Translations under genes and position numbers: made by a program
Notes under the pieces: generated by a model
Seen by the model: the letters and a program-made list of their open reading frames with translations, nothing else
What the model was told of the DNA's origin: nothing
The model's database searches: none
Part shown: positions 1-20,000 of the stretch, piece by piece
Position numbering within the stretch: the stretch's first letter is position 1
How the letters are laid out: each line of letters opens with the position of its first letter
Assembly: GCA_023231475.1 (NCBI GenBank)
Contig: JALJEE010003284.1
Coordinates: forward strand, 58,604 to 78,603
Length of the DNA: 20,000 nt
Reading direction: 5' to 3'
Source of the DNA: Seison nebaliae
Lineage: Eukaryota

Positions 1-177
1 CCGATCCACCATCGAAAAATCAGTTACATCAGCAGAAGTTAAACGACTCCTCTCCACATTCGGATCGATCAAACCATCACTACTTATCGCATGTTCCACA
101 CACAACTTCCTCCAGAATTCCATTCCGATCTGATTTCCACATTGTCCCAATTGCAACGTAATTATTCCACGTGGCAT
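1..177 (-). CDS. TUBG1: Gamma-tubulin, N-terminal 59 codons (gene continues off the left edge; absent from the ORF track)
   Basis: Minus strand from ATG at 177 reads [59 protein letters not shown]. This matches the gamma-tubulin N-terminus ([28 protein letters not shown]...DR). Confidence 0.95.
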
Positions 178-442
178 TTCTCAATTCCGAAAAGTTAAAT
201 TGTCTCTGATTCCCGAAAATATGATAAGGGATAATCGTAAAATATTGAAAGAAAGAATGTTTTATTTGATAAAAAAAAACAAATGTTTTCCTTTTTTTTT
301 TCAATTTAAAAATGTCAAAAAAATATATTTTATTTTTCTTTCAATTTTACATACATTTTCCAAATGTGAAGCTTATGAAGATATTTGGAGGAATTTTCAT
401 TTTATTTAACTTAAAACGCAAAACCGACTTACAAAACGACAT

Positions 443-2406
443 TTAAATATAAAGATCAACATCAGTTTTCGAAATTCTTTCGATTCCCAATTTCTGGAAA
501 TAATTATCAATTTTTTCTTGATCTATTTCAAAAAAGGAGAAATATATTTCAAATTAAAAAAGAAAAATTACAAATATAATTTAAACTTGCTAAATTGATA
601 ATTTTCTTCCAATAACTTCCGTAATCTCCCAAATCGTCCTCACCTGTCATTTCATCATTAGGACCTTTAGAATCGAAAAGTGAAATTTGAGAATATGATT
701 CTAATAATTGTCTCATATTATCTTCACTCAATGCATTCATTTCTAATAATTGTTTAATTTTTCCTTTTTTCGGTCGTGGTCTACCTTTCATTATTGGCGG
801 AATATTCTCAGCTCGTGGAATACGTTTTGTTGAATTATCCTCACAATTTCTCTTACGATAACGATTATTTTGAATAATGTTATTATTCCTAAAAACCGAT
901 TGTGCTGGCATCAAATCTTTCGAATTACAATTCCGAATAATTTTTATTGGAGTTTCAGCGATAGTCGTTACACGAGGAATCGTCATCATTTTATATTTGA
1001 CATTTGGTGGTTTGGAATGATAATTATTTTCAATTCGATTATTCATTGTTGATCGATATGGAATTTCTTTTGAAATTTTTCTCTTTAAATTTCCACGTTC
1101 CAATTTATCTTGACCATTCAAATTGTGAATTATTTTATAATTATAATTTTTCTTAGAAATATCATCGTCAATCTCTTGACCATCAACAGATGATTCATTT
1201 AATGTTAATGTTGAAATTGGTTGAGATGATGAATTTGAATCTATCGATTTCTGTGTCGAATCAATAAACGATGAAATTGTGGTGGAAGGTTGAAGTGAAT
1301 GATCTGAATTAATTTCTTTCAATTTGAATCTTTTCGATCTTCTCATCTTCTCGGAACTTCCCAATTTTCCTTCATTTCTCAAGCACATATCAATCAATGA
1401 GCAAATATCGACTTTCTTCTCTATTTCGAATTCATACAACTTCCTCAATAACATATCTAAAAATCATCATAATAAATTTTAAACGGTTTTTAATTACTAA
1501 CAAAATTCTCTACTTTGTTCCATTTTTGGTGTATTTATATGATGAGTGAATGTTTCCTTCAATCTGGAAAAATGAAACGAAAAATTATTTTCATCAAAAA
1601 AATTAACTGAATTAGATAATCGGAATAAGAATGTTTATCGCTCGGGAATTTGTTAATTATTCGATGAATTACTTCATAATCATATTTTATCTCATCAGTC
1701 AAATAAATTTCTTTAATAAAACGTTGAATGAATTCGTGAGTCTCAGTCAATGTCCATTTACCCACGGAAGAAGTTTGACCTAAAATAATTTATAAAAATT
1801 TAAAAAAAAAATATTAAAATTGAAATATAATTTAGATGAACTTTTATAATGTGCTTCTTCAAAATTCTTTCCTGATATTCTTTCTAAATCCGAAAGGAAT
1901 TGTTTATAGCAAGTCGAATGATATTTTGCTTTCTTATCCACCAAACCAGAAACATGATAAAAACGATAAATGTAAAGTGGATGAATTTTAGATAATTCTC
2001 GAATTTTTCGACATGTTCCTTGACGTTTCGCCAGAACGATACGCTCTGACGTTTCCATTTGACAGAAAATACATTTCACATAATCCACCACATACAAATC
2101 GTGAAGAAATTTACCGTTCTGATGGTTATGATTAGGTAGGTTTATTTTGACTTGAAGAAAATTTCCGTTTTTTTTTGCTAACATTGACATGAGACATTCG
2201 GAATTGTCGATCTCCTTAAACTTATGAGAACAGATGTAGGAGATTTCTTCATATTTCAATTCGGTATGTTTCACCGAATCATCAAAATTCAGATCTTTAT
2301 ATCCATTCCGTCTCAATTTCATATCCTCTTCCGATTCATAATCCTCAATCGCTTTCGACAACTCTTGGAACGAACTATATTTCGCATTATGCTTCAATTT
2401 CACCAT
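443..2406 (-). CDS. Uncharacterised ~582-aa protein: N-terminal MULE-type WRKY/FAR1/ZSWIM3_N-like Zn domain, a second CxxC...HxxC motif and a long S/N/K/R-rich tail
   Basis: Exons 2406-1842, 1779-1608, 1563-1502, 1456-587 and 522-443 join in frame through GT-AG introns of 62, 44, 45 and 64 nt (donors GTTCAT, GTTAAT, GTTAGT, GTTTAA) to TAA at 445-443. The pattern YSSFQELSKAIEDY...YEEISYICSH...C...LQVKINLPNHNH resembles MULE-derived DNA-binding domains, followed by KCIFCQ...AKYHSTCY. The last donor and the true start are less certain. Confidence 0.65.
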
Positions 2407-2830
2407 TTGTTCTCCGATAAATTTTTGATAACGATAAACCTTTTTCGCCTACTTAATTTTTTGAGAGAAAGTCTTAAGCTTAAAAATAGCACAATTCCAC
2501 TTTGGAAAAAATTGAGCTGAAAATTTTTGAAGAAAAAATTTGGAAAAAAATTTATTGATTTACAAATATATTTATTATGAACCATATTTTTATTAAGTGA
2601 GGTTATTGGAAGACTAGGTATTTGAGAGAATAACTCCAAAAATTATTATTCTTTATCGGACTTTTATTTTTAGTTATTTAAATTTTTTGAAGCTTTTTTA
2701 TAAGTTTTCTTCCATTATCAGTTCCATTAGAATCTAATGGAATCTAATGAATAGATACTTCAGCAACAATCCTTTTATCTAATTAGAATTTTAGCAATTA
2801 GAATCGAATGATTAGAAAATGAGGAACGAT

Positions 2831-4250
2831 TTAATTAATCAAATTCAAATTATTTATTTTTAAGATGATTTGTTGTTCGGGAAGATTGTTATTCAATTCT
2901 ATAATTCTTATCATACGATTTATAATCTTCTTGTATTTGTCGGAGAAGTGAATTGGTAAATTTTGAAGCATATCATTGTTCATCGACCGACTCAAAACAT
3001 TCAATTGACAAAAAGAAGTTTTTCTTAGTTTCTCCTCATTCGAAGACTTTTCCGATGGAGATTTCGTGATTTTCTCACAGATATTATAAAGAATCCGATT
3101 AAGTAATTTGAATCGAGCGATCTTATGGATAATTTTATTCGAATGATTGATCGTTAACGGTTTATTGCTTCGCATGAAACGGAAAAATTCTTGAATATTT
3201 GATGAACGATATTGATTTCCTAATTGTGATAGAAAAGTTTCTTTTAATACTTCGAAGATCATTTGATCAAATCTGGAAATATGATTGAAAATAAATTTAA
3301 AAAAATATTATAATATAAAAAAACTTTAAATATTTTTCAGCTAATGGTCTCATTTCTTCGATTTTTTTATTAGGTAAATAGTTTCCATTAGTTTTCTCAT
3401 TTTGAATGAATGCAAATAAATAGAAATCGATATGGATTTTATGAGAGAAGAGCAACAATGATAAATAGCTATACTCTTTCAATAAGATTAATTGATAAGA
3501 ATTTTTTAAACTGTTAATCCAATAATTTATTTTGTCGAGATCTGAGGAATGAGGTAAAAACTGCAATTTATCTTTTTGGCAATTGCTCAACAATGATTGA
3601 CATAATGAATTCCTGATATTGTTAATACATTGATAATGGAGATATTTGTTCGATATCGAATTCTTTCGTAGACTTTCATATTGAAAGAATTTTTCCGAAA
3701 TATTCAGTCGTTTCATCGAAAGGAAAAGTTCTTTGGCATCCGAGAAAACTAATCCCTTACAATGATTAGTTAACCAAACTTCGTCCTTCAGTTTATTCAT
3801 TAATGTAACAAAAGGATCTTCCAATAAAAGTATATTTAATGTATGAACATTCACTTCAAATTTACGACGTATCTTCTTTCTCTCGGCTAACGGAAATAAA
3901 TTGTATTGAAATGACTTTCCGGTATCTAATCGATTTTGAGCGATATTCTTCGATAGTATCGTACTTGGAATATTATTCTTAATGTTATTTCGAATAACAA
4001 CATACGCTGATTTCGTTCGATATTCCAAATTGTTTATCAATTTTAATTTATTCAAAATATTTCTAAAAATGGGATTTTGGAATTCTCCAATATATTGCAC
4101 CAAATAAATATCATGAGTTCGATATTTGTCCTTTTCATAATTATCATCCTCATTCGACATTAAATGACTCCAAACCACCCATATGAGGAAGCATGCTCCA
4201 ACATTCAGAAGAAGACGCTTTCTCCCAAACATCATTTCAAAATCGTTCAT
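2831..4250 (-). CDS. Galactose-3-O-sulfotransferase (GAL3ST)-like type II membrane protein, ~455 aa, with degenerate PAPS motifs
   Basis: Exons 4250-3325 and 3272-2831, with a 52-nt intron 3324-3273 (GTTTTT...CAG) joining YLK-FDQMIF. N-terminal TM segment LLLNVGACFLIWVVWSHLM. The blocks IFRNILNKL, ILLLEDPF and INSLKNSYQLILLKEYSYLSLLLF resemble GAL3ST blocks (QNIL.R, TILRDP, F.LV.I.EYFDESL.LL). Family call is by motif recognition only. Confidence 0.6.
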
Positions 4251-4294
4251 TCATTTTAGCCTCACCATCTTTATAAATGATGAAGGACGCTCAA

Positions 4295-4302
4295 TGACGT
4301 CA
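4295..4302. promoter_or_regulatory. Perfect CRE/ATF-type palindrome TGACGTCA ~45 bp upstream of the GAL3ST-like ATG
   Basis: Exact 8-mer in a promoter-proximal position; function untested. Confidence 0.25.
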
Positions 4303-5624
4303 AATACCAAATCTAGGCATTTGATAGATGTGCTAACGAAACTGAAAGTTTAATCTAAACAATTATCAACATTTTAAAATGACAATCAACGAATTATGGT
4401 GATTTGGTCACCTGCAAGATGGTTACTTTGGCTACGTATTTTAACAAAAACGATGATTTGGCCATCCATGTTCTACACAAAAGAGGTGGTCAAATCATTA
4501 TTAATCTTTTAGTGAATTATCTTTTTTTTTTCAACTTTTCCGAACTTACGTAGGAAACAATAGTTTGGAGAAATCATCGTGTGTCCAATCAACGTCGAAT
4601 GTTTAGCATTTGAATGTAAATTAGATAATCTCACTAATAGGATCTCCATATTGTCTCCAGACAATTTTAGTAACCAACTAAAAATAATGAGCATATTGAC
4701 TACATGAACAAGGACAGTTTTGATAGTTTCTTCTTAAGTTCGGATATTTCTGTTACTTATTTGTGCAATATTTAGATTTTAGAAAAGTTTTACATTCATG
4801 CATCTAATAAACGTATTACAGATGTTTGAAGAACAATATCAGTAATACTATGTAACTCTATAGTGACTATATATTACTAGTGACTATGTTATATAGTATA
4901 TAACATAAAATTTATACATTATTACTTTCCTTGTAAGCATCCTATTAGAAATTTATTATCATTAATATTTATTATTGAAATTTCAGTCAGGTTAAATAGG
5001 AAAATAATTTTAAAAAATTTCCATCTTCATCAACGTTGATGAGATATTTATTTATGAAATATATTATGTTAACGTTGATTTGATGAAACTACCATAAATA
5101 TGGAATAACATTAATCCTGATTATCTGATCATTTTAATTTTAGACTATTTATTACTTACAAAGTTAGTAAAAAAAGTTACTTATTGTTAGTTATTTTTTT
5201 TTTTATTATTATAATAACAAATCCCCGAATGAGGTTATATGCTCGATCGATGCAAAGTAACGATTTATGCGTGCTTGATAGGGAGATGGCGAGACCATAA
5301 ACGCCACAACAAAAAGTCACAAATAGACAAAGTTTCAAAGGAATTGAAAAGTATTTGCGCTTGTGATGAAAGGAATAAAACAACCGAAGAAATTTACAAT
5401 GGATCTTATCTGTCAAATCCGATGACTTCTTTTTGTTATCTATCAGACATCCCAGGAATTCAATTTCTTAAGCACACTACGAGCGGAAGAAAGCCAGCAT
5501 CCGAGAAGAGCATTGATGGGCTTTTCGAAAGCCAGTTCTTGTAGAAAGCGGAATACGTGTGTGGTTGTAAATGTTTAACCATAAGATGTCTGGTGACGGA
5601 TCCACTTATGTTTAAGCGATTGTA

Positions 5625-5770
5625 AAGTATTCTTTGTTAAAAGGCGGATTTTTAGCCGTGACATTAAGCTTAATCGAAAATCAGTTTAACATAAAACAAA
5701 TGTCTAACAATGTAAGAGGGTTTTTTTTAACTGTCTTGGATAAAAATCCGTCTTTGAACAAAGTATACTG
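5625..5770. mobile_element. Non-autonomous MITE, Tc1/mariner-pogo type (~146 bp, ~40-bp imperfect TIRs, TA target-site duplication)
   Basis: Left end aagtattctttgttaaaaggcggatttttagccgtgaca matches the reverse complement of the right end, cagtatactttgttcaaagacggatttttatccaagaca. TA flanks both ends (5623-5624, 5771-5772). No ORF inside. Confidence 0.8.
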
Positions 5771-6287
5771 TAAAGAGGATCGAATGAAGTGAAGGAACAG
5801 TTATATATATTATATTTATAATTTAGTAAATATTCATTAATTGTGGAAAGTTTAATATAATTCGGTTAGTGTTAAGTTGAGGAAAGACACTCACTAATAA
5901 GTAAGAGGTTGAAGTAACAGAATGTAAATAAGGTGAAAACGAGAAACTTCAACAATAAGAGAATAAATACAGGAAACGAGATAAGTAATGGTGTGGAGGA
6001 GACAATTTAAAATAATAGTCGTCGAGTAGATGAACATGCGTGAATTACACATCAGCACAAAGAACGAACGACAATTAAGAATGACGATAAAGAAAATAGA
6101 ATTTAAGATGACTAACGGAATTCTACGAGAATTCATTGGATTACTTAAATTTTGTGATCTGCGATAAAGTAACTTTCGAAATTTGGGCTTCCAATATTTC
6201 GTTGGATGGAATATTTTCTCATCATTTGGAATTCAATTACAACCTAAATTTTATGTAAAATAATTCATTTCAATTCTCATCACCCAA

Positions 6288-9200
6288 ATGACGTCCGTGG
6301 AACTTTATACAAAAGTTAGAAACGATTTTCATTCATCAATTCCCTCCAATATTCGCTAATTAATTGCTAACTAATTCTAATAAATTTCATTCTAATCTTA
6401 TTTCACAGCAACATAACGTTCTTTCATTCGGCTCTCGAAAAGAACACATTCGCAGTGTATGTCCATTCATTGAACACCAAAAGAAATTTCTTTCTTTTTA
6501 TTTCATTAAGTTTCAAAATCTTTATTTCTCATTTTTATTTTGCAATATTTTTTCAAAATTTTTTTCCTACGAAATTTATTCATTTAATTTTTTTTCCTCT
6601 TCTAAGTTTTTTTCCAAAATTATTTCCATTTCATTTTTTTTCAAAATAAATAAAAATTATTGTTATTAATAAAGGGCGCCCGGATATGGTTACCTGATGG
6701 TGATAGTGTGTGGGTGGGGGCGGAATTGCTTGATAATTATGCGGAAAATCAGACAAAGTATCGTGCTAAAGTAGATGATGGTGATTTGATTGAGATCAAT
6801 ATTCAACCAAATCTCATGCCACCGATGAGAAATCCACAAATTCTCACTGCCCAAAATGATTTGACTTCCCTCTCTTATTTAAATGAACCGGAAGTGTTGT
6901 ACAATATCCAATTACGTTTCCAATCTAGTCAGATTTACACGTATTGCGGAATCATATTGGTGGCGTTAAATCCATATGCAGCACTTCCTATTTATGGTAA
7001 TGAAGTGATCGAAGCTTATAGTGGAAACGATACGAGAGATTTCGATCCTCATATATTCGCCGTTGCCGAAGAAGCGCTTCAACAAGTTCGCACATATCAG
7101 AAAAATCAATCAATTATCGTTTCGGGTGAAAGTGGTGCAGGAAAAACTGTATCAGCCAAATATGCGATGAGATATTTCGCCAATGAAGGTGGTTCGAGTG
7201 AAGAGACTCAAATCGAGAAACGAGTTTTAGCCTCAAATCCAATCATGGAAGCATTCGGTAACGCGAAAACAACAAGAAACGATAACAGTAGTCGATTTGG
7301 AAAATATATCGAAATTAATTTCGATAAGAAATATCGAATAGTTGGAGCTAATATGAAAACGTATTTATTGGAGAAATCACGAGTCGTCTATCAATCAGGA
7401 AATGAGAGAAATTATCATATCTTCTATCAACTTCTCACACAACGTATGGAGGTCGATATGGAAATATTATCGTTGGATGAACCATCAAAATATCGATATT
7501 TGAATCAAGGTTCTCTATCTTTCTTTTCCGTTCAATATTTTTATGTTTTATCTAATTGAAATAATTTTTGGATTTATATTTCACGAAATCGTAATTTTCA
7601 TCTTTTTTCTCATCTCGAATTAATTCTCGATTATTGTTTGCATCTTTGGAATTTGAATGAATAATTTCCCCATTTTTTCCTTCTGAATATTTGAAAATTT
7701 TTCTTTTCTCTTTTCCATTTATTAATGTTTGAATATAATTTAATTAATTAATTCTCGAAAAATAATTTTTGAAATTTTTAAAAATTATTTTATTCAGGAA
7801 ATTGTCTGACGGTGGAGAGTATTGACGATGGTCTACGATTCCAGGAGATGTATGAAGCATTCCAGATATTGGGTATCGATGAACAAAACATCAATACCGC
7901 TTTCCGATTATTGGCATCAATTCTCCATTTGGGAAATGTGAAATTCTCATCGAGAGATTCCGAATCGTGTTATGTGGAAGATGGGAATGTGGAAATACAA
8001 TTGATATCTCAATTACTTCATATTGATGGGAAAGAATTAAGTAAGTGGTTGTGTGAAAAACGATTAGAGACGGTGGGTGAGACATTACAGATAAAATTGA
8101 AGAAAAATGAAACAGAACATGGACGTGATGCATTAGCGAAACATTTATATTCGAAATTATTCGATTGGATTGTTAATGAAGTGAATAATTCGTTTCATTC
8201 GAAAGAACGTCACAAATTCATCGGAGTATTAGACATTTATGGATTTGAAACATTTCCTACTAATTCATTCGAACAATTTTGTATTAATTATGCTAATGAG
8301 AAATTACAACAACAATTCAATCGACATGTCTTCAAATTGGAACAAGAAGAATATAAATTGGAAGAAATTAAATGGGCCTATATCGATTTTTATGATAATC
8401 AGCCATGTATCGATATGATCGAAGGTCGTCTCGGTATTTTGGGATTGTTGGACGAAGAATGTTTAATGCCACGTGGAAATGATATGAGTTGGTGTGAGAA
8501 ATTATATAAGAAATTTTTGAATACTTCACATTTTGATAAACCGAAAATTGGACGACAACATTTTACCATTTCTCATTTCGCTGAACATGTCAAATATGAT
8601 TGTCGCGGTTTTCTTGAGAAGAATCGTGACACTGTTCTCCATCAACAAATCGACGTAATTCGAACTTCACAATTAGATTTAATTGAATTATTATTCGCTG
8701 ATGAAATACCATCAATGAATCAAGATCGAAAATCAAAATTGAAACGAAAAAGAACGGTAGGAAATCAATTTAAAGAATCATTAAATTTATTGATGGAAGC
8801 ATTAGATTCCACTAATCCACATTATATACGTTGTATTAAACCGAATGATGAGAAAGCTGCTTTCAAAATCGATCGTCGTCGAGTCGTCGAACAATTACGT
8901 GCTTGTGGCGTATTGGAAACGGTGAGAATAAGTGCGGCCGGTTTTCCCTCACGATGGTCATATTCTGAATTCTTCCAACGATATCGTTTACTACTTACAC
9001 AAAAGACGGAAATGGGTGAAAAAATAAAACGTCGACGTCAATCGTCGGTGACATTAAGAATGTTCCATAAAACGATGTCGGAAGATATCATCAAACGAAT
9101 TATTCCCGATGAGGAGAAATATCAATTTGGTAAAACAAAAATTTTTTTTCGTGCAGGTCAAGTGGCATTCATGGAGAAATTACGATCGGAAAAAATGTAC

Positions 9201-12200
9201 AAATCTTGTATTCTTATTCAAAAGACTATTCGTGGATTTTTAGCGAGACGGAAATATGAAAAAATTCGAAATTTTTTGAAAATTCTTTTGAATCAATCTC
9301 GAGGATATTTAGCTCGAAAACATTTGAAAAAGATTCGATTGGACATTTCTGTATTGAGAATTCAATCATTCTATTTGACTTATGTTCAATGTAGAAATCA
9401 TAGACGATTGAATATGTTCGCTATTCTCTTACAACGTCAATGTCGAGGTTATTTGTGTCGAAAGAATTATGAAGATAAACGATTAAGACAATCATTAAAT
9501 ACGATTTCTTCTTTCATTTTAACGATGAAATGTCAAGAGAATTATAAGAAAGCATTAAATGGAATTGTGTTATTACAATCACATTATCGACGACGTGTTG
9601 CTAAGAAGGAATTGAGAAAGAGAAAAAGTGAAATGAGAAATGTTCAACATGTCCAATCTTTGAATAAAGGATTGGAGAATAAGATTATTGAACGTCAACA
9701 AAAAATTTCATTATTGGAAGAGAAATTGAAAGATTCGTCGAGAAATGTTTCTATTCTTCATAACGAGAAGAATGAATTGGATAATCGATTATCGAAGATC
9801 ACTCTCTCTCTCCAACATCAAGGAAAAGAAAAATTGACGTTAGAAGATAAATTGAAGGAATTGGAAGAGGAGAATGAAATGTTGAAAAAGAAGAATTGGG
9901 AAATGGAGGAAGGAATGAAGAAGACGAAAGAGGAATATGAGACACAAATTGAATTGATATCAGCTGATAATGAAAGATTGAAATATTTAGAACATCATCC
10001 AGAAGTAAGTAATCGACGTCGATCGACAATTCGTCGATTATCTGAAGTGAAAACGAATGAATTAACGAAAGTAGAAATCGATCAAACATTAAATGAAGAG
10101 AATGAAATGGAGAAAAATGAAGAAATGAATTTGATCGATTTTGATGATAATTCCAATATTTCGAAGGAAACATATCTTAGCATTATCCTTCGACAACAAT
10201 CCTTCTTACAACAAAGAAAAGAAGAGATTGATCAGTTGAAAGATGAGAAAAGTCAATTGGCAAACGGTCAATTAAATGATTCAATCAATTTGAATGATTA
10301 TGATTTGTCATCAAATCAATCTTTTATTATTCATCAATTAATTCAATTAGATAATCAGAATGAACATATTAAAGAGATTGAGAAGGAAGTTGGAAAATTG
10401 AATAATTTGCTTATAACAAAAGATACTGATACAATATTCAAAAGTATCATTCAAGATAATAAACGATTGACACAAGCAATTGATTTATTGAAGAATGAAA
10501 TGGGAATTATGAGAACTGCTCTAGTTCTCTATCAACAACAAGAAAATAAAGAGTTAACGAGAATTGAGGGAATGCCAAAAGAAGAACACAATCCTCTCCA
10601 ATCACCACAATCAGATAATGAATTAGTTGTCGCATATAAAACATCGAAATTTTTGAACAGGTTTCCAATTTTCTTTCCTTTCACTTTTTTCCTTCTTTCC
10701 ATCCCAAACACATTAACTCTAAAAATGAGTTTAAAGTAAAACATTCCAAAAAGTTTTTTTTGGAATTTTCAAATAGAAAATTTTTACACTCCAAAAATTT
10801 AACTCTATTTTTTTCTTCTTCATTTAAATTGTTTAGGAATGATGATTTTCATTCTCTTTCTATGGAAGAAAAACATATGAACAAGTAATTACATATTTCT
10901 TCTTTCCATATATTAATTACTTCAATTCTTCTCATTTAAATCTCCATTCTCTATTCAGTTTTCTTCATCTTTTTTTTAGAATTTTTTAATTTTTTTTTAA
11001 TTTTTAATTTTTTTAATTTTTTTTGTATTTAATTTTAATGTTAATTTAATTAATTTGTAAGTTTAAAAAGATAATTTTTCTTAAACTAATTTTATGTTAT
11101 TTGGTAACAGGTTATTGGAAATGCAGAATCAAAAGAGGAATGAAGATTTAGAGAATCAGTTGTTGGAATTACGAAAGAAGTTGAAAGATGAACAAAAGTT
11201 GAAGAAACGATTTGAGACAGATATCATGAATTATCAGAATGCTTCACAAGTCACTACAGCTACCGTGAATTTAACATTAGAGAATAGAGTTATCGTATTG
11301 ACGGAACACACGAATGAATTGATGGAAGAAAATAGTCGATTGAGGGAAGAATTGAAATTGTGGATGAGATTATTCAAACACATCACCACCACATATTATC
11401 ATGACTCAAAAGTTTTATTAAGGAATTCAGATGGCGTTCCCGATCAGCGATTGGAGAAAGTGTCGAAAGAATTAAATTTTGGTCATATGTTAACTAAATT
11501 CCAAGAAACGATAACGGCGTTAACTGAGAAGAAAACGAAAGAAGTTGAATATTATCGAGATATTATTTACAATAGTTCACCGGAGAATGAACAATTCAAA
11601 AAATACGGTTCGTATTTAACTGAATTAATTTCGTTTCATATTCCTCATCAAGGCGCCATGTCTGAAGAGATCAGTCGACAATCAATGTTCGAATTAGATA
11701 TGAATAATACTCGTACGATAATTGATGAATTCACGATAAGTTTGAAAATTTCTTAATCAATTAATTTTTACACCTAATCTCTAAAAAGAATATCCGATCG
11801 ATTTGTCGGTGAACTTGAATAAGGAAGAAAATCTGAAATTTAAAGAATTTCCATATATCGCCATGTTCATGTGTGTCCGATATCTGGATTCGTTGGAGAA
11901 TGAGGAGAATATGAACACTTATTTCACTATGATTTTCGAAAAGATTCGAACACTCTGCAGCAATATCCATAATAACGATAAAGATTTGGATAAGAAAATT
12001 AATCGTACAGTTTTCATATTTGCTATTTACGAACGTTTCACTAATTTGCTCAAACAATTCGGTAGTGAAAAAGTTTCTTTTTAAATTCAAATTAAATCGC
12101 ATTATTTTTATTCGTTTTAGTATCTGGCCTCCAGTCCTGAAGATGATTATCTTCAACATTATATGCTCCAGTCTTTCGAGTACAACGAATATTTCCTTCT

Positions 12201-13130
12201 ACTTCGTAAACATTTGACCGTGGCTCTTACTCGATTATTAAACGTGTTGTTCCAAAAACTTTATGAATGGGTGAGAGATCTATGTTGTAATAAGAAGTCG
12301 GAAGTGAATGGAACGAAAAACGATAACGATAAAATTGATGGTTTTGGACAAATAGCTCTATCGCCAATGGATAATGTGGATCCACCGGAAACCAGGAATA
12401 TTTTAGAGCAACTCAAACAGTATTATAAAATGATGAGAGATCACAATTTACATGAAGACACAATCGCTCTAATTTTCCAAAGAGTTTCTTTATTCATTCT
12501 CACAAATTTAATTTAGAATTTTTTTTTAGTTATATCTTTGTATTAATTCTAGTATTATTCGAACGATTTTACTTGTCGGATCTGTGTCATTAGAAAAAGG
12601 ATTCGCTATCAAGTTCGAAATTTCATATATTTTTTTTAAATTTTTATTTAATTAGATATTTGTTGGATCAATTACGAACTTTTGCTAAAGATCATCATTT
12701 GTCGAACAACCAAATCTTCGACGTCGAAGAGAATTTGGCTGCTGCTAACGAACTATCACTCATCATTTTCGTTCATGAAGATGTGAAGAAGATAGTGGAG
12801 ACAGCGAAACATATAAACGCTTTCCAAGTTCCAATATTTCTTATTTAAAATTTAAATTAATTTAACTTAAATTCTCTATTAAAGGTAAAACGAATATTGG
12901 AGAAATATAAAGGTTGTGAGGAACATGATAAGAATATCAAAGCCTCTTTCATTGAATCAGTGATGAGTGCAATGAAATTCAAACAAACTGGATCGGACGA
13001 AACATTGACCACCCCCGTCAAATCCATCATTTATGAAGAGATCACTTTCTCATATTTCTCCTGTCGAGTACATTTGGAAGATGTAGAAATCCCGAAACAA
13101 TTCCGAGATCTACTTAGAAGGAAAATCTAA
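6288..13130 (+). CDS. MYO5: Unconventional myosin class V heavy chain, ~1833 aa, 9 exons
   Basis: Exons 6288-6314 (MTSVELYTK), 6675-7509, 7798-10660, 11111-11739, 11789-12072, 12121-12483, 12530-12612, 12656-12827 and 12885-13130 sum to 5502 nt in frame. Motor motifs [24 protein letters not shown] and QLRACGVLE are present. Six IQ motifs have the class V 23-25-23-25-23 spacing, followed by coiled coil and a divergent dilute (DIL) tail (LKQFGSEK...FEYNEY; IFQRLYLCIN...KGFAIKYLLDQL). Confidence 0.96.
10837..10884 (+). other. Candidate 48-nt in-frame cassette exon in myosin V intron 3
   Basis: Pyrimidine tract and TTTAG acceptor at 10836; open phase 2-2 exon encoding [16 protein letters not shown]; donor AA|GTAATT at 10885. 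Confidence 0.5.
10971..11056. repeat. Low-complexity T(n)AA simple repeat in myosin V intron 3
   Basis: Repeated tttttaa units, almost entirely A/T. Confidence 0.6.
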
Positions 13131-13364
13131 TTCTAAAATTTAAATTTCTATAATATTTATTTAATTCTAATTCGATTATTTGTATATCATTCGAACATGT
13201 CAACACATAATTTATCATCTATTTTTTTATTTTCCCATATCAATTTATTTCGTCTATTTATTTGGAAAGTTCTTATTTCATTTTAGTTTTCTTCTTTTTT
13301 AGTCAATATTATTTATTTATAAAAACTGTTCACAACATGAAAGCGAAAGAAATTATTAAGAGAA

Positions 13365-14576
13365 TTATTCTTCTTTTATCGTATACATCGTATTCCAATT
13401 GATTCCATCAGCCGATTTGGGTTTCGACCAAAATAATGGAAATATTATATTGACATACCAATGAGATCCGAATGCATTCGCTAAATTGCGTCGAATGCCG
13501 AAATTATACGAATTCACTGAACGACTAAATTCATGAGAAGTTAATCCATTTAAAATTAATGCGAAATTATTAAATCCGAGTAAGAATGTGAAAAAGATCG
13601 TTGCCAATCGAATGAATAAAATGAGAATTGTAAAGAATTCAATTACCGTATATTCTTTAGAGATGATGGTACGATAAGCAGTCAATGGGAAGAAATATCT
13701 TGAATAAGAATATGGTGAATTAAACCTTGAATCACTTGTCACTATATCATGAATGAATGCAGGAAAGAAACAAAGAGCCACACCAATCGTAGCCCAAAGA
13801 CAAAAAATGATGAAATATCTCTCATTTTCAAAACCGACACACACCCCAGTGAATGCACAATGATGATCACGTTTCAATATACATTTGTCACATACCTTAC
13901 AATGATGACAACGAATCGGTTGATCGATCTTAAATATTTGGAGAAATATTTTGAAAAAATTTTTAGAAAATTAGGAAACTTGACAAATTTCACAAAATTT
14001 TGGATTACGACGAATTTCTTTGATTTGTTCAACTTTACCCACTTGTAACGAAGCTTCTTGTATTCGAATTAAACTTCTCCGAACAATTTCAATCTTCTTC
14101 CGGAATCTTCGACAACAAATTCGTGATTTCCAATCAAAATTTATGGGATTTGAGCTGCCAACGAATAGTTCTTTGTATAACGCTCTCCCATATGAGTTGA
14201 GATAAGAGAGTTTAATTCCTTTGAGTTTTGTGAAATAATTTCTCGTTGAAAACACTTGACATAACGTGAAATTGATGAAGACTTCGATATAAGAGATGAT
14301 TATCAAGTAGTGGGAATAGAAGAAGAATATATCGAATGTTTTCTTCCATTTATTCTCAGGAGAAATAATCAAATTCGCATTTTCGTAAATGAAAGGAAGA
14401 TGATAAAATAAGGCTTTATAAGTGATAAATAATGTGTAAATGTGGACGATTATGGGGATGAAGAAATTTAATAAAGTGTCTTGCATTTTCGGAGAACAAC
14501 ATCTTTTATTTTCATCTTCCTCTAAATTCATCGGGCAAACTTGACAAGGTATTTCGATAACTTTATCAGTTGTCAT
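13365..14576 (-). CDS. DHHC-type palmitoyltransferase (ZDHHC family), ~386 aa
   Basis: Exons 14576-13980 and 13928-13365. The 51-nt intron 13979-13929 (GTTTCC...TAAG) restores FCEICQ-IDQPIRCHHCKVCDKCILKRDHHCAFTGVCVGFENERYF. Two hydrophobic segments lie on each side, with LTSHE (TTxE-like) and YNFGIRRNLANAFG C-terminal motifs. Confidence 0.93.
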
Positions 14577-15010
14577 ATTTCCCTCTCACTCTCTCCCTTC
14601 TTTCTCTCTCTATGGTAACGAGTCATAAGCTTTTTCGTAAAGTTTAATTCAACCTTTTCAAAATATGAACTTTAATTTTAACATCTTAATATTTTCTTTC
14701 AATATAAGAACACTAATAAAACTAATAAGAATATAATTAATTAAGTTTATTATAATAATTCTAATATATTATTGTTTATAATCATAATTAAGAAAATTCT
14801 AATTTACTCTCGTGCTTAATCTTTAAAGAATAGACACATTATCTCAAAAAACCATTTCTGGCCTCTTTTCTGATTACTTTGATAACTTGGGGATTTAAAA
14901 AATTCACTTATTTATGATAAAAACAAATAATTATTGGAATAAAAACACTCCAAGAGAATTGCAAATGCCATTGAAATAAAAATTAAAAATTACTTTTCTT
15001 TAAAATAAAT

Positions 15011-16006
15011 TTACAGTTTTCTAGCATTTAAAGCAAAATTCATTTCTTTCGACTGACACCAATTCCATTTATTTGTAATTGGATTGAAGAATGTCCCTCT
15101 CACTGCAATCGTATCCAAAGTATCTTCAATTCGAAATATTTAATGATTTTGATGAATTAAAAAACTAACTTAATTTTAATAATTCTTCCAATTTTTTCAT
15201 GTCAATGAATTTATTCCAGTCATGAGTTCCTCTAGGAACAATGTTCAACACATATTCGGCAGCGAAAATTCCAAAGATATAACTAAATAGTGTTCGGTTA
15301 AGAGATGTGAGAAATAGTTGTCCATTACTCTTCAAAAGGAAACAAATGAAGAAGATTTAGAAAGAAAAAAAACTTTTAATAATTTCGATGAATTGCCTAT
15401 GAATTCTGATAAATTATCCACATGTTCTATTACTTCACTTGCCACAATAAAATCATATTTTTCTTGCTCATCTTCCTTTTCTACTAAATTCTCTATCGCC
15501 ACTAAATTATTAATAAATTATTTTGTATAAAAAATTTGACGGAAACTTGACTGATAATCGACTTTATTTGATTGAATCGTTTTCAAAGATCTTCTCTTGT
15601 TTTCTTCAATAACATCATTCACCATATCAATCGCTGTTACTTTGGCACCTAATCTGTTCAAACACTAAAATTTACTGAAAAGTAACAGAGAAAAATGAAA
15701 TAGAAGAACTTCCGATAAAATCCCACCACCACATCCAACATCTAAACATTTCAAATCTTTAATTTTTCCATCAAACTATAAAATTTTATTTATTTTGATC
15801 GAAACTAATCTTTAACAAACATTATCTTTAATCCAAGGCACTCTTAACTCATTATATCTCCGTAATGCAATAAATGGATCATGAGAATTTCCACTCGTGT
15901 TCCACCATCGAGATGAGAATTGTTCAAATTTCTCTAATTCATTTCGGTTAACGGACGAGGATAGTGATCTGGAAATTAATTTATTTGAAATTATTAATAA
16001 CTTCAT
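15011..16006 (-). CDS. COQ3: Ubiquinone biosynthesis O-methyltransferase, mitochondrial, ~256 aa, 6 exons
   Basis: Exons 16006-15821, 15775-15710, 15664-15547, 15501-15374, 15329-15170 and 15123-15011 (introns 45, 45, 45, 44, 46 nt) total 771 nt. Motifs: SVNRNELEKF...RWW, NELRVPWI, LDVGCGGGILSE, YDFIVASEVIEHV, LNRTLFSY...AAEYVLNIVPRGTHDWNKFI, FNPITNKW. The N-terminus looks like a transit peptide. Confidence 0.95.
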
Positions 16007-16164
16007 TTTCTTCTGCTTTTGAAAAAATTTTCAAATTTGTAAATAGAAATGGAAAGTAAATTATTCTAAATTAAATTTCCAGTTTATTAAATTCAAAAAA
16101 TTAAGCCAAAAACACTTTCCAGAATTTCGTTCAAATTTTTTTTCTTACTGTTGGAAATTATTTT

Positions 16165-16385
16165 AGTTTCAATTCTAATGAAACACATGCTGCCTTCAGT
16201 CGATCCTTCATCAGAATGTAGTAATTAGTCTTCGATTCAATTGTATTCGGAAGACAAAAAGTTGAGCAAATGTTTTTTAACGTTCCATCCATGTACCAAT
16301 GTTCATCTTCTAATTCGTTGTAATTCATCTCTGACGAATAATAGATGATATATTCTCTTTTGCGATGTCATCGAATGTTTTGTTC
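16165..16385 (-). pseudogene. Decayed MULE (Mutator-like) transposase fragment
   Basis: Minus frame reads YIIYYSSEMNYNELEDEHWYMDGTLKN...NYYILMKDRLKAA. WYMDGT (16298-16281) matches the MULE first-catalytic-Asp motif W(F/Y)xDGTFK. No start codon or full-length ORF; boundaries approximate. Confidence 0.7.
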
Positions 16386-16479
16386 AGTCGTACTACGTCG
16401 TAGTTCTCCTTATTGATGGTAAGTAACAACCTATTTCGTCATCATATTCGAATTATTTGATGTATTTTTGATATTATGA

Positions 16480-17117
16480 AGGACCTGTATCCACATGTTT
16501 TCAACATTTTGACTGTGAGCTTGAATATGACAAGCTTCTTACAAAAATGATGTTAATTCTCCGTGAATCATATGGCGAATGTCCATTGTTACCAAACGTC
16601 TTCTAATTCAGTTTCCAAGAAAATCCGGAAAATTAATATCATCAATTTTTCTGCAATCGGACAATTGCAACCTACAAGACCGATAAAAAGAAAGTCTTGT
16701 TTTTAGGTTCGTGGTTTGGTCATAAACAGATGGAGAATATAGACGTGGATGTAAAAATAATACCGGCGGGAACCACTAGTAAACTTCAACTATTAGATGT
16801 CTACTTTTTCCGCAAATACAAAATTTTTTTCAACAGAATCGATGAACAAATTAATATTCATCAGAAGCAAAACCCATTATTGAAGAGGAATATAATAATT
16901 CAAATTCATTCGATTGTGCATCACCAAATGCTATCGGACCAATTTCGACCTATGATATTATTCGCGTTCGCCCGTAGTCGCCCATTGTTCCATCAAATCT
17001 CCTTTCTCTAATGTCGTGCAGGTAAGTTTCTAAATTGTTTTTTCTAAATTAGAAGAACACAAATGTACTTTATGTGGAGATAATTCCTTTATATGTTGCA
17101 GCTGGTGTAGGAGACTT
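16480..17117 (+). pseudogene. Decayed pogo-like DDE-1 transposase, C-terminal half
   Basis: KLLTKMMLILRESYGE, then LFLGSWFGH...IIPAGTTSKLQLLDVYFFRKYK...RNIIIQIHSIVHHQMLSDQF (cf. LLLDSWxGH / IPxGTTxxxQPLDV), and after a frameshift a Cys tail CTLCGDNSFICCSWCRR. Stops and frameshifts are present and the catalytic D appears as G. Confidence 0.85.
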
Positions 17118-17149
17118 CTGGAAGTCTGGAACTAAGACTTAGACACACG

Positions 17150-17537
17150 TTGAAATACACTCTGGATTTAAATAATATGATAAACGTTTGTACCGATGGT
17201 GCATCTTCTATGATTTGTCCATAGAAGTAATAATAATTTTAAAACAACCATTTCCACAGATTCGCAGTTTGTGCTAAACATAAAGAAATTAAGTTAATTA
17301 CTGATAATGTTAGGTTTTATCAAACTCTTATCCAATATGAGCAGTATGAAGTATCCAGAAATAGTTTCTTTCGTTCAAAAAAATTTTTGTAAATTTGGTA
17401 CAACATATGCATTTTCTTCTTTGCACTATGTGAAAAATCGTTATCGATCACAATTAAAAGATGAAAAGTTATTAATTAATTTAGTTATTAATTCACTGAA
17501 CAAGAATGAGCCATTCGAAGATGGGGATACGGATTAA
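17150..17537 (+). pseudogene. Internally deleted hAT transposase remnant (Buster/Charlie/GTF2IRD2-like)
   Basis: KYTLDLNNMINVCTDGASSMI (hAT TDGA motif) lies only ~100 nt before a dimerisation-domain-like segment KYPEIVSFVQKNFCKFGTTYAFSSLHYVKNRYRSQLKDEKL. Confidence 0.8.
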
Positions 17538-17975
17538 TTTGAGGAAGATGTTAATCCTTATTTTGTCTAATTGAAAGAATTTAGATTTAAAAATTTATGT
17601 TTTACAGGTACTTTTTATAAATAATTAGTTATTTTTCAACTTCTCTTATGTAGTAAAGATGTAGGCTGTGTACTATACATGGAAAATAGTTTTATATAAT
17701 GAGGTATAAATCTTCCATCCTAAAAAATTTACGTACCTGCCATAGAACGTAAAAATCTAACAGAAACTTTAAAAGCGACAAAGAAGCTCATTATTCAATT
17801 TTAACTAATCCAGAAATGAAATCATTTTACGATATTCTTTCTTTTATTTTTCAGTACTCGTGTAAATTTTTTGAAATTCTACTCAACCGTTTCTATATTG
17901 TCAACAGTTTTTTGTATATAAATTGTTTTAAACGTTCGAGTTTTAGACTATTTTAATTCTTAATTCTACATTTAG

Positions 17976-19259: not shown

Positions 19260-20000
19260 CTAGAGATATCGAGTTATAATGAAAAATTCCTGAATAATGA
19301 TTTCATCACATAAATGTAGTGTAGGATTACATAACATTTCACTCAATGGATAAAAGTTAAGGAATATTAATCTTTTTCGAACTGTGCTTTCCTCATTTCT
19401 TATCGACTTCCACATGTAATGGAGAAAACGAGAATTCATAAATTGTATGATCTCGGTCGACAATTTTAATGTTTGTCTAATAAACGGATTATATGATTTT
19501 TTGTAAGGTTCTAAGGTTCCACTCTTTTCCTGTTTTCCAGAACCCTTCAACATAAATTTTATATCAGGAATTTTTCTTAAAACTTCTACTATTTTTGTAG
19601 TTATCGATATCAATCGGATCTTATAAAAACTGTAAGCAAATGGTGCAACATGATGATCATAATTCATAACTATAGCTGATGGTGTTGGTTGTTTATCTTC
19701 GTATTTCTTTAAAACATCGTCCAATTGCTGTTCGATATCTATATAATGATCAACAACAATTTTACGGGATATCGGTATACCATGAGCTTGAAAGGTGAAG
19801 GTGAAATTGAGACCATAAATATCATTAACTCTAATGTTAGTGTATTGTTTCGCATCTTCCCATCCTATTTCTGTCAATTTGAACATTTTATAAACCACAT
19901 GTACAAATTGTCTCAATGTGGAGTCTCCCATGAATATGATATATTTATTTTGGATTTTCTTTTTCATATGTTCATCCGTTGAAAGTTTTCGAACTATTTT
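19260..20000 (-). CDS. NXPE family (neurexophilin/PC-esterase, SGNH-like) protein, C-terminal part; gene starts beyond the right edge
   Basis: Frame is open from the window end (KIVRKLSTDEHMKKKIQNKYIIFMGDSTLRQF). GDSTLRQ, QAHGIP and the C-terminal LHLCDEII...ITRYL* fit the NXPE C-terminal domain pattern. Confidence 0.8.
   Translation of the reverse strand, partial: KIVRKLSTDEHMKKKIQNKYIIFMGDSTLRQFVHVVYKMFKLTEIGWEDAKQYTNIRVNDIYGLNFTFTFQAHGIPISRKIVVDHYIDIEQQLDDVLKKYEDKQPTPSAIVMNYDHHVAPFAYSFYKIRLISITTKIVEVLRKIPDIKFMLKGSGKQEKSGTLEPYKKSYNPFIRQTLKLSTEIIQFMNSRFLHYMWKSIRNEESTVRKRLIFLNFYPLSEMLCNPTLHLCDEIIIQEFFIITRYL

Follow-up and report, generated by a model that had tools for sequence, protein, structure and literature searches.

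The stretch of DNA considered here, called the window below, comprises 20,000 nucleotides of contig JALJEE010003284.1 from Seison nebaliae, a small, marine seisonid rotifer, and has a G+C content of 30%. It carries a myosin V gene, whose motor exon is 100% identical to SNEBB_010734 (Seison nebaliae myosin V), and the neighbours of that gene on the same 78.6-kb contig, which encode a DHHC palmitoyltransferase (SNEBB_010735) and a COQ3-like methyltransferase (SNEBB_010736). Introns also divide a gene with a weak match to ZSWIM3_N and a gene that a preliminary description of this DNA had labelled GAL3ST-like, a name for which Pfam gave no support. The 5' splice sites (donors) of these five genes nearly all begin with GTT, that is, with T at the third intron position (+3), and this donor code is the subject of the present analysis.

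The preliminary description had reported that 19 of 19 introns begin with GTT. All 19 hexamers are present where it placed them, and its tallies hold (A at -1 in 15/19 and at -2 in 16/19, T10/C5/A4 at +4, G at +5 in 6/19); the pattern is real in the window, but was overstated. When the NCBI proteins are mapped to the window, each of the 17 annotated junctions has a single GT..AG solution, as in U2-type GT-AG introns, and 14 of the 19 donors (8 in myosin V, 1 in the DHHC gene and 5 in the COQ3-like gene) are among them. Missing from the earlier list were a GTT donor at 11608, which opens an in-frame intron, and two GTA donors at 6457 and 10885, each ending a 48-nt myosin exon that is not shared by all three NCBI isoforms (a cassette exon). 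The corrected count of GTT is 15/15 for constitutive annotated donors and 15/17 for annotated donors overall. For five donors without a protein model the evidence is the reading frame. Three of them lack an in-frame rival within -39 to +30 nt, and two are ambiguous, with in-frame GTA rivals at 1513 (for 1501) and at 571 (for 586). With these included the range is 18 to 20 of 22, and GTC or GTG begins none of 20 donors.

Seven of the myosin junctions are also placed independently of the NCBI models. A spliced aligner written for the task, which scores GT/GC and AG only and is blind to +3, was given five non-Seison myosins as references and put seven of the eight previously listed myosin donors at identical positions, six of them with 5/5 references and that at 6315 with 4/5; the handful of spurious calls that it made lie in the weakly conserved myosin tail. 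The donor at 11740 was placed by 0/5 foreign myosins and the DHHC junction by 0/2 foreign proteins, which stop short of it; both lie in poorly conserved stretches. Four sequencing runs, with no RNA run among them, gave only short scattered pieces against 11090-16100 and no joint at any intron, and were thus uninformative; removal of the introns from the transcript is deduced from the NCBI isoforms and the reading frame. Over all 22 donors (Table 1), +4 is T in 11, C in 6 and A in 5, +5 is G in 8, exact GTTTGT occurs once and G at +6 never. All three donors with T at -1 have G at +5, compared with five of the other 19, and 15/22 introns are 43-51 nt long.

Table 1. Genes, introns and alternative exons in the window (a slash marks the exon-intron boundary; introns are given as donor..acceptor)
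Feature	Position	Strand	Basis and remarks
Myosin V gene SNEBB_010734	6288..13130	+	9 constitutive introns, 2 cassette exons
Myosin V intron AAA/GTTAGA..AAG, phase 0	6315..6674	+	NCBI model and aligner; holds cassette exon 6409-6456
Myosin V cassette exon, 48 nt, donor AGT/GTATGT at 6457	6409..6456	+	only isoform P0122
Myosin V intron AAG/GTTCTC..CAG, phase 1	7510..7797	+	NCBI model and aligner
Myosin V intron CAG/GTTTCC..CAG, phase 2	10661..11110	+	NCBI model and aligner; holds cassette exon 10837-10884
Myosin V cassette exon, 48 nt, donor CAA/GTAATT at 10885	10837..10884	+	absent from isoform P0121
Myosin V intron ACG/GTTCGT..AAG, 45 nt, in frame	11608..11652	+	NCBI model; donor picked by 2/5 foreign references
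Myosin V intron TAA/GTTTGA..AAG	11740..11788	+	NCBI model only
Myosin V intron AAA/GTTTCT..TAG	12073..12120	+	NCBI model and aligner; L005 matching position GTACGT
Myosin V intron AGA/GTTTCT..TAG	12484..12529	+	NCBI model and aligner
Myosin V intron CAA/GTTCGA..TAG	12613..12655	+	NCBI model and aligner; L005 matching position GTAAGA
Myosin V intron CAA/GTTCCA..AAG	12828..12884	+	NCBI model and aligner
DHHC palmitoyltransferase (SNEBB_010735) intron CAA/GTTTCC..AAG	13929..13979	-	NCBI model
COQ3-like (SNEBB_010736) intron 1, AAT/GTTTGT..TAG	15776..15820	-	NCBI model
COQ3-like intron 2, GAA/GTTCTT..TAG	15665..15709	-	NCBI model
COQ3-like intron 3, CAA/GTTTCC..TAG	15502..15546	-	NCBI model; in-frame rival GTCAAA at 15540 unused by model
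COQ3-like intron 4, AAA/GTTTTT..AAG	15330..15373	-	NCBI model
COQ3-like intron 5, TAA/GTTAGT..AAG	15124..15169	-	NCBI model
Gene with weak ZSWIM3_N match	~443-2406	-	Pfam match weak; introns by frame only
ZSWIM3_N-weak-match gene intron AAA/GTTCAT..TAG	1780..1841	-	frame only, no rival
Intron TCA/GTTAAT..CAG, 44 nt	1564..1607	-	frame only, no rival nearby
Intron TTT/GTTAGT..TAG, 45 nt	1457..1501	-	ambiguous; in-frame GTAGAG at 1513
Intron CAA/GTTTAA..TAG, 64 nt	523..586	-	ambiguous; in-frame GTAATT at 571 (49 nt), GTTATT at 616
Intron AAA/GTTTTT..CAG, gene earlier labelled GAL3ST-like	3273..3324	-	frame only, no rival
Gamma-tubulin-like gene, start only	1-180	-	no donor contributed within window
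NXPE4-like gene, end only	19263-20000	-	no donor contributed within window

Controls were drawn from a scan of metagenome contigs, which yielded 80 myosin loci analysed with the same aligner. Outside the clade related to Seison 354 introns were called. Removal of redundancy and a flank-identity filter left 214, of which 204 begin with GT; this set is not independent, as it contains many orthologous introns of related animals. In these 204 introns +3 is A in 109, G in 64, T in 24 and C in 7, and -1 is G in 184. Seison is joined by a clade of nine loci, with support of 99 in a FastTree tree of 50 rows and 90 in a quick mixture-model tree of 23 rows, and with a long-branch warning at the Seison join. 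Their introns are mostly 44-65 nt long and bdelloid introns are published as 42-70 nt (PMC3464624), so that by tree position and intron length they are likely to be bdelloids. One of these loci, L005, supplied 20 introns and four others 32 (33 called, one dropped), while L008, L011 and L017 were omitted as near-duplicates. The L005 contig further holds a repetitive, Ala-rich open reading frame (16899-17567, +), which presumably resembles LEA proteins.

GTT begins 6/20 donors in L005, all with G at +5, and 11/32 in the four other related loci, compared with 15/17 in Seison (Fisher p = 6.5e-4 against L005, 3.5e-4 against the four loci and 4e-11 against the other eukaryotes). GTT without +5G sets Seison apart further, at 9/17 donors versus 0/20, 1/32 and 4/204, respectively. 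At +4, L005 has A in 12 and T in 6 of 20, the reverse of Seison, in small numbers, and -1 is G in 7/20 donors of L005 and 16/32 of the four loci. The acceptor AAG ends 9/22 Seison introns (7/15 of the constitutive annotated ones) versus 4/20 in L005 and 15/204 in other eukaryotes; given this excess, the 3' splice site may be relaxed too.

Five Seison introns match L002 or L005 in position and phase, one of them a residue apart. At three of these positions the relatives have GTATGT, GTACGT and GTAAGA where Seison has GTTAGA, GTTTCT and GTTCGA, and at the other two both have GTT; old introns were therefore converted, as the preliminary description had proposed from an intron that it likened to one in vertebrate MYO5A and that is present in L002. 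Before the conversion GTTTGT/GTTAGT already made up a minority class of donors and G at -1 had already been relaxed, and the comparison supports a GTT code that is specific to the Seison lineage, as far as these relatives show. Within the motor domain (6675-10660) Seison has one internal intron and an exon of 2.9 kb, whereas L005 has 11 introns, so that intron loss appears to have accompanied the donor change.

The make-up of the introns could by itself favour GTT if selection at +3 to +6 had been relaxed and donors had drifted to a T-rich, G-poor composition, with no specific reader of +3U. T makes up 51% and G 3% of the intron starts, GT within intron bodies is followed by T in 29/44 cases, and +4 to +6 are near background. 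Positions +9 to +30 hold 3% G, versus 9-12% in the related loci. Measured against the 51% T of intron bodies, +3T is significant for both 15/15 (p = 4e-5) and 15/17 (p = 0.0015). The harsher null of 29/44 gives p = 0.002 for 15/15 and 0.008 for 20/22, with 0.04 for 15/17 and 0.09 for a worst-case 18/22. However, +3A is seen in 0/15 constitutive annotated donors where 27-33% would be expected (p = 0.002), +3T stands at 20/20 donors versus 21/31 intron-body GT sites (p = 0.003), and relatives of the same T content (51% in the four loci) retain +3A; relaxation would, moreover, itself require an altered spliceosome. Drift is disfavoured by these observations and is regarded as improbable. Codons of the myosin coding sequence were also shuffled to see whether cryptic donors are avoided, with no decisive result (AAGTT 6 versus 10.1 expected, p = 0.09; AAGTA 8 versus 7.9).

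How such donors are recognized was addressed by scoring their pairing with small nuclear RNAs (snRNAs), none of which was found in an Rfam search of the window. Energies of the duplex with canonical U1 at its 5' end, calculated for 20 GTT donors and for 200 sampled from 456 other GT sites, average -1.1 and -1.3 kcal/mol, respectively (area under the curve, AUC, 0.42), whereas in L005 the figures are -3.6 and -0.7 kcal/mol (AUC 0.90). The Seison donors thus lack the complementarity to canonical U1 that characterizes U2-type donors, and perfect GTAAGT sites lie unused within myosin exons at 8041 and 10005. Since canonical U1 fails to pick the Seison donors, either U1 has changed or its pairing is no longer selective. 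The earlier claim of a shifted donor code thus gains on three counts: lineage specificity, converted introns and uninformative canonical pairing.

Canonical U1 might still act in a shifted register, and the pairing of AAGU with U1 ACUU had been put forward before. Only this 4-nt shift, out of nine registers scored, beats chance (AUC 0.65, p = 0.01). Its mean gain is only 0.3 kcal/mol, and specificity to Seison is contradicted by L005, where the AUC rises to 0.78; the shift also predicts -3U and +3A, which are seen in 4/20 and 0/20 donors, and the proposal does not survive. Atypical human donors that pair with U1 one base over, the subject of a 2009 report by Roca and Krainer, are said to begin with GUU, as the Seison donors do, and to need a conserved G one base further in. 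In Seison one-base shifts give AUCs of 0.46-0.49 and G at +6 occurs in 0/22 donors, so this class was rejected, and a shifted register in either form is very hard to credit. U12-type introns, with the donor motif RTATCCTT, were likewise rejected: no donor has ATCC, and GTTTCY occurs in only 5/22. ZMAT5 is scored missing in Seison and in both acanthocephalans (PMC12256650).

A count of pairs made by exon A with U5 and by +3 to +6 with unmodified U6 ACAG separates the Seison donors well, with an AUC of 0.89 against all GT sites and 0.83 against 31 intron-body GT sites, compared with 0.55 in L005, and this lends weight to the greater reliance on U5 loop 1 suggested in the preliminary description. 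U1 might accordingly be canonical, marginal or even lost, with the choice of donor left mainly to the hand-over step, through exon AA(A) paired with U5 loop 1, unmethylated U6 ACAGA facing UUYNU, proteins binding U-rich starts and definition of short introns end to end. The prevalence of 43-51-nt introns agrees with this account, as does the U5/U6 see-saw by which +5G accompanies T at -1; canonical U1 is kept in most lineages with shifted donors, and U1-independent splicing has been reviewed (PMC11732430). Such a mechanism gives no reason why C, which accounts for about 20% of the intron pyrimidines, never occurs at +3 (0/20); the pair count in part restates U-richness, and in Seison the weakest position is +5, where G makes the strongest pair with U6. 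Selection at hand-over is therefore possible rather than probable.

METTL16, the enzyme behind the N6-methyladenosine (m6A) mark at position 43 of U6, was among the factors previously proposed to have changed. Of the 25 syndermatan genomes in a published BUSCO table, Seison is the only one with METTL16 scored Missing; for the remaining 24 the score is Complete, Duplicated or Fragmented (PMC12256650). This published score lends the proposal some support and makes the absence of METTL16 a lead. SNRNP27 and PRP8, proposed alongside it, are both scored Complete, as are SNU23 (ZMAT2) and DIM1, and the parts of the table searched hold no match to U1 proteins or LUC7 (PMC12256650). In the spliceosome U6 G44 stands opposite +3 and m6A43 opposite +4, and when the METTL16 mark is lost, +4U and exon-U5 pairing are favoured (PMC11732430); the change from A to U at +4 has been linked to METTL16 loss (PMC10581693, PMC11732430). 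METTL16 loss would thus explain +4 but not the strict +3U, because G44 pairs best with C, yet GTC occurs in no donor. That +3 is U and never C suggests instead an A partner or a U-specific reader.

Comparable changes are known from other systems. Entamoeba has GUUUGU donors read by a compensatory U1 with ACAAAC (Roy and Bowser, bioRxiv 10.1101/2022.06.08.495308); the preliminary description had noted the GTTTGT donors and left out this U1. Both Entamoeba and Seison have replaced the old GUAAGU code by one with dominant +3U (15/17 annotated donors in Seison) and U commonest at +4, possibly with additional pairing to an unchanged U6 ACAGA. However, Entamoeba is intron-poor and 88-90% of its donors are exactly GUUUGU, whereas Seison is an intron-rich animal with alternative exons, lacks the strict +4U +5G +6U and adds an exon AA signal. 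Saccharomycotina, and mutants lacking METTL16 or SNRNP27K, share with Seison the change from A to U at +4 and the heavier reliance on U5 loop 1, and METTL16 is scored missing in Seison; but there +3 stays a purine and the snRNAs are unchanged, while Seison has +3U, SNRNP27 scored complete and A rather than G at -1 (PMC10581693, PMC11732430). In the animal Fritillaria borealis a U2-type spliceosome also reads altered donors, with less m6A on U6; most introns there leave GT-AG and start G-rich, whereas Seison retains GT-AG and changes only -1, +3, +4 and +5 (PMC13326754). The Seison donors therefore resemble those of Entamoeba at +3 and, at +4, those of yeasts that have lost METTL16, and match neither defining set in full.

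A changed donor code in Seison is very likely, and a species-wide shift to +3U is highly probable. The explanation favoured here, at a probability of roughly 0.45, is that an ordinary U2-type spliceosome has been retuned to AA/GUUY by a changed U1 5' end together with unmethylated U6. Constitutive exons end mostly in AA, and U1 would pair with the new donor through A at position 6 (with +3U), U at position 9 (with -1A) and A or G at position 5 (with +4 U/C). Once the donor has been handed over, the U run in loop 1 of U5 would bind exon AA(A), while in U6 G44 would form a wobble pair with +3U and unmethylated A43 a pair with +4U; through these contacts +5G could become dispensable. The absence of GTC favours an A facing +3, as in the Entamoeba U1. 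GTA donors would now form a weak class surviving on regulated, skippable exons, and the two GTA donors that close skipped exons fit this (n = 2). The fullest form of the proposal, in which the code was rewritten genome-wide to AA/GUUY with up to three changes in U1, loss of METTL16 and GUA as a weak, alternatively spliced class, is doubtful.

Several points weigh against the retuned U1-U6 spliceosome. The U1 sequence that scores best among 32 variants of positions 5, 6 and 9 (A or G, A and U; AUC 0.93-0.94) was fitted to the same donors, and is a prediction that gives no support. Most lineages with shifted donors keep canonical U1, including all 227 Saccharomycotina candidates, Thecamonas and Micromonas (bioRxiv 2022.06.08.495308, PMC10581693), and Fritillaria has two U1 versions with identical 5' ends, m6A being altered instead (PMC13326754). 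METTL16 loss is known to shift +4 and not +3, and in yeasts it tends to be accompanied by loss of SNRNP27, which is scored Complete in Seison. The score of Missing itself has a background, as 76/526 genes found in an acanthocephalan (14%) are Missing in Seison, including LSm2, U5-40K and SPF45 (PMC12256650). The excess of A at -1 is partly common to relatives (8/20 in L005; p = 0.1 versus L005), the harsher null leaves only the weak values given above for 15/17 and 18/22, and the myosin coding sequence is depleted alike in GTA (44 versus 61 expected) and GTT (62 versus 85). Only five neighbouring genes with at most 22 donors are covered, with the NCBI models taken as given. Finally, GTA begins 2/17 annotated donors and perhaps two further ones, and is therefore still in use for splicing, or at any rate in the gene models.

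A single 20-kb window with two calls that have GTA rivals also leaves room for a local or gene-modelling effect, in which these genes are atypical, or GTT sites were picked by a gene predictor whose training donors were skewed and by an observer expecting GTT; GTAAGT intron-like sites in a transposase remnant and one other stretch point the same way. Against this, foreign proteins aligned without regard to +3 set seven of the myosin junctions, the pattern is common to five unrelated genes on both strands, and no way is known for neighbouring genes to have a private donor code, which makes such an effect quite unlikely.

The transposase remnant, a broken DDE type (weak DDE_1 match), lies at 16161-17133 (+), and its intron-like segment CAG/GTAAGT..TAG (17022-17052, 31 nt) joins the frame to a Cys-rich tail; it is shorter than all host introns and perhaps a fossil from another host. 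The other, at 4506-4549 (-), is a 44-nt TAC/GTAAGT..AAG of host-typical length in a degenerate, coding-like region with no Pfam match, and may represent either one more GTA donor or the remains of a defunct element. A donor of canonical look, ATGGCAG/GTACGT, stands at 17736 (-), outside the assigned genes.

In the literature searched no account of a donor shift in Seison or any rotifer was found; the 2021 Seison genome paper (PMC8351084) has no splice-site content in the passages and both supplements searched, and the annotation paper by Hagemann et al. (2024) may show splice-site logos. The only earlier description found of a GTT-type donor change concerns Entamoeba amoebae. In animals the donor consensus and the 5' end of U1 are regarded as fixed, and their coevolution has been reported only in amoebae, mostly with massive intron loss. 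If the present reading is true, old donors have been converted in an animal that has alternative exons and introns in the thousands, and the code would be movable at high intron number. The mechanism is sharply testable: public data allow one to ask whether U1 pairing or the U5/U6 hand-over sets the donor consensus, and whether METTL16 was lost before or after the donor change, with bdelloids, acanthocephalans (METTL16 scored present) and two diverged Seison strains available for comparison. The Seison donor code also bears on gene prediction in the group.

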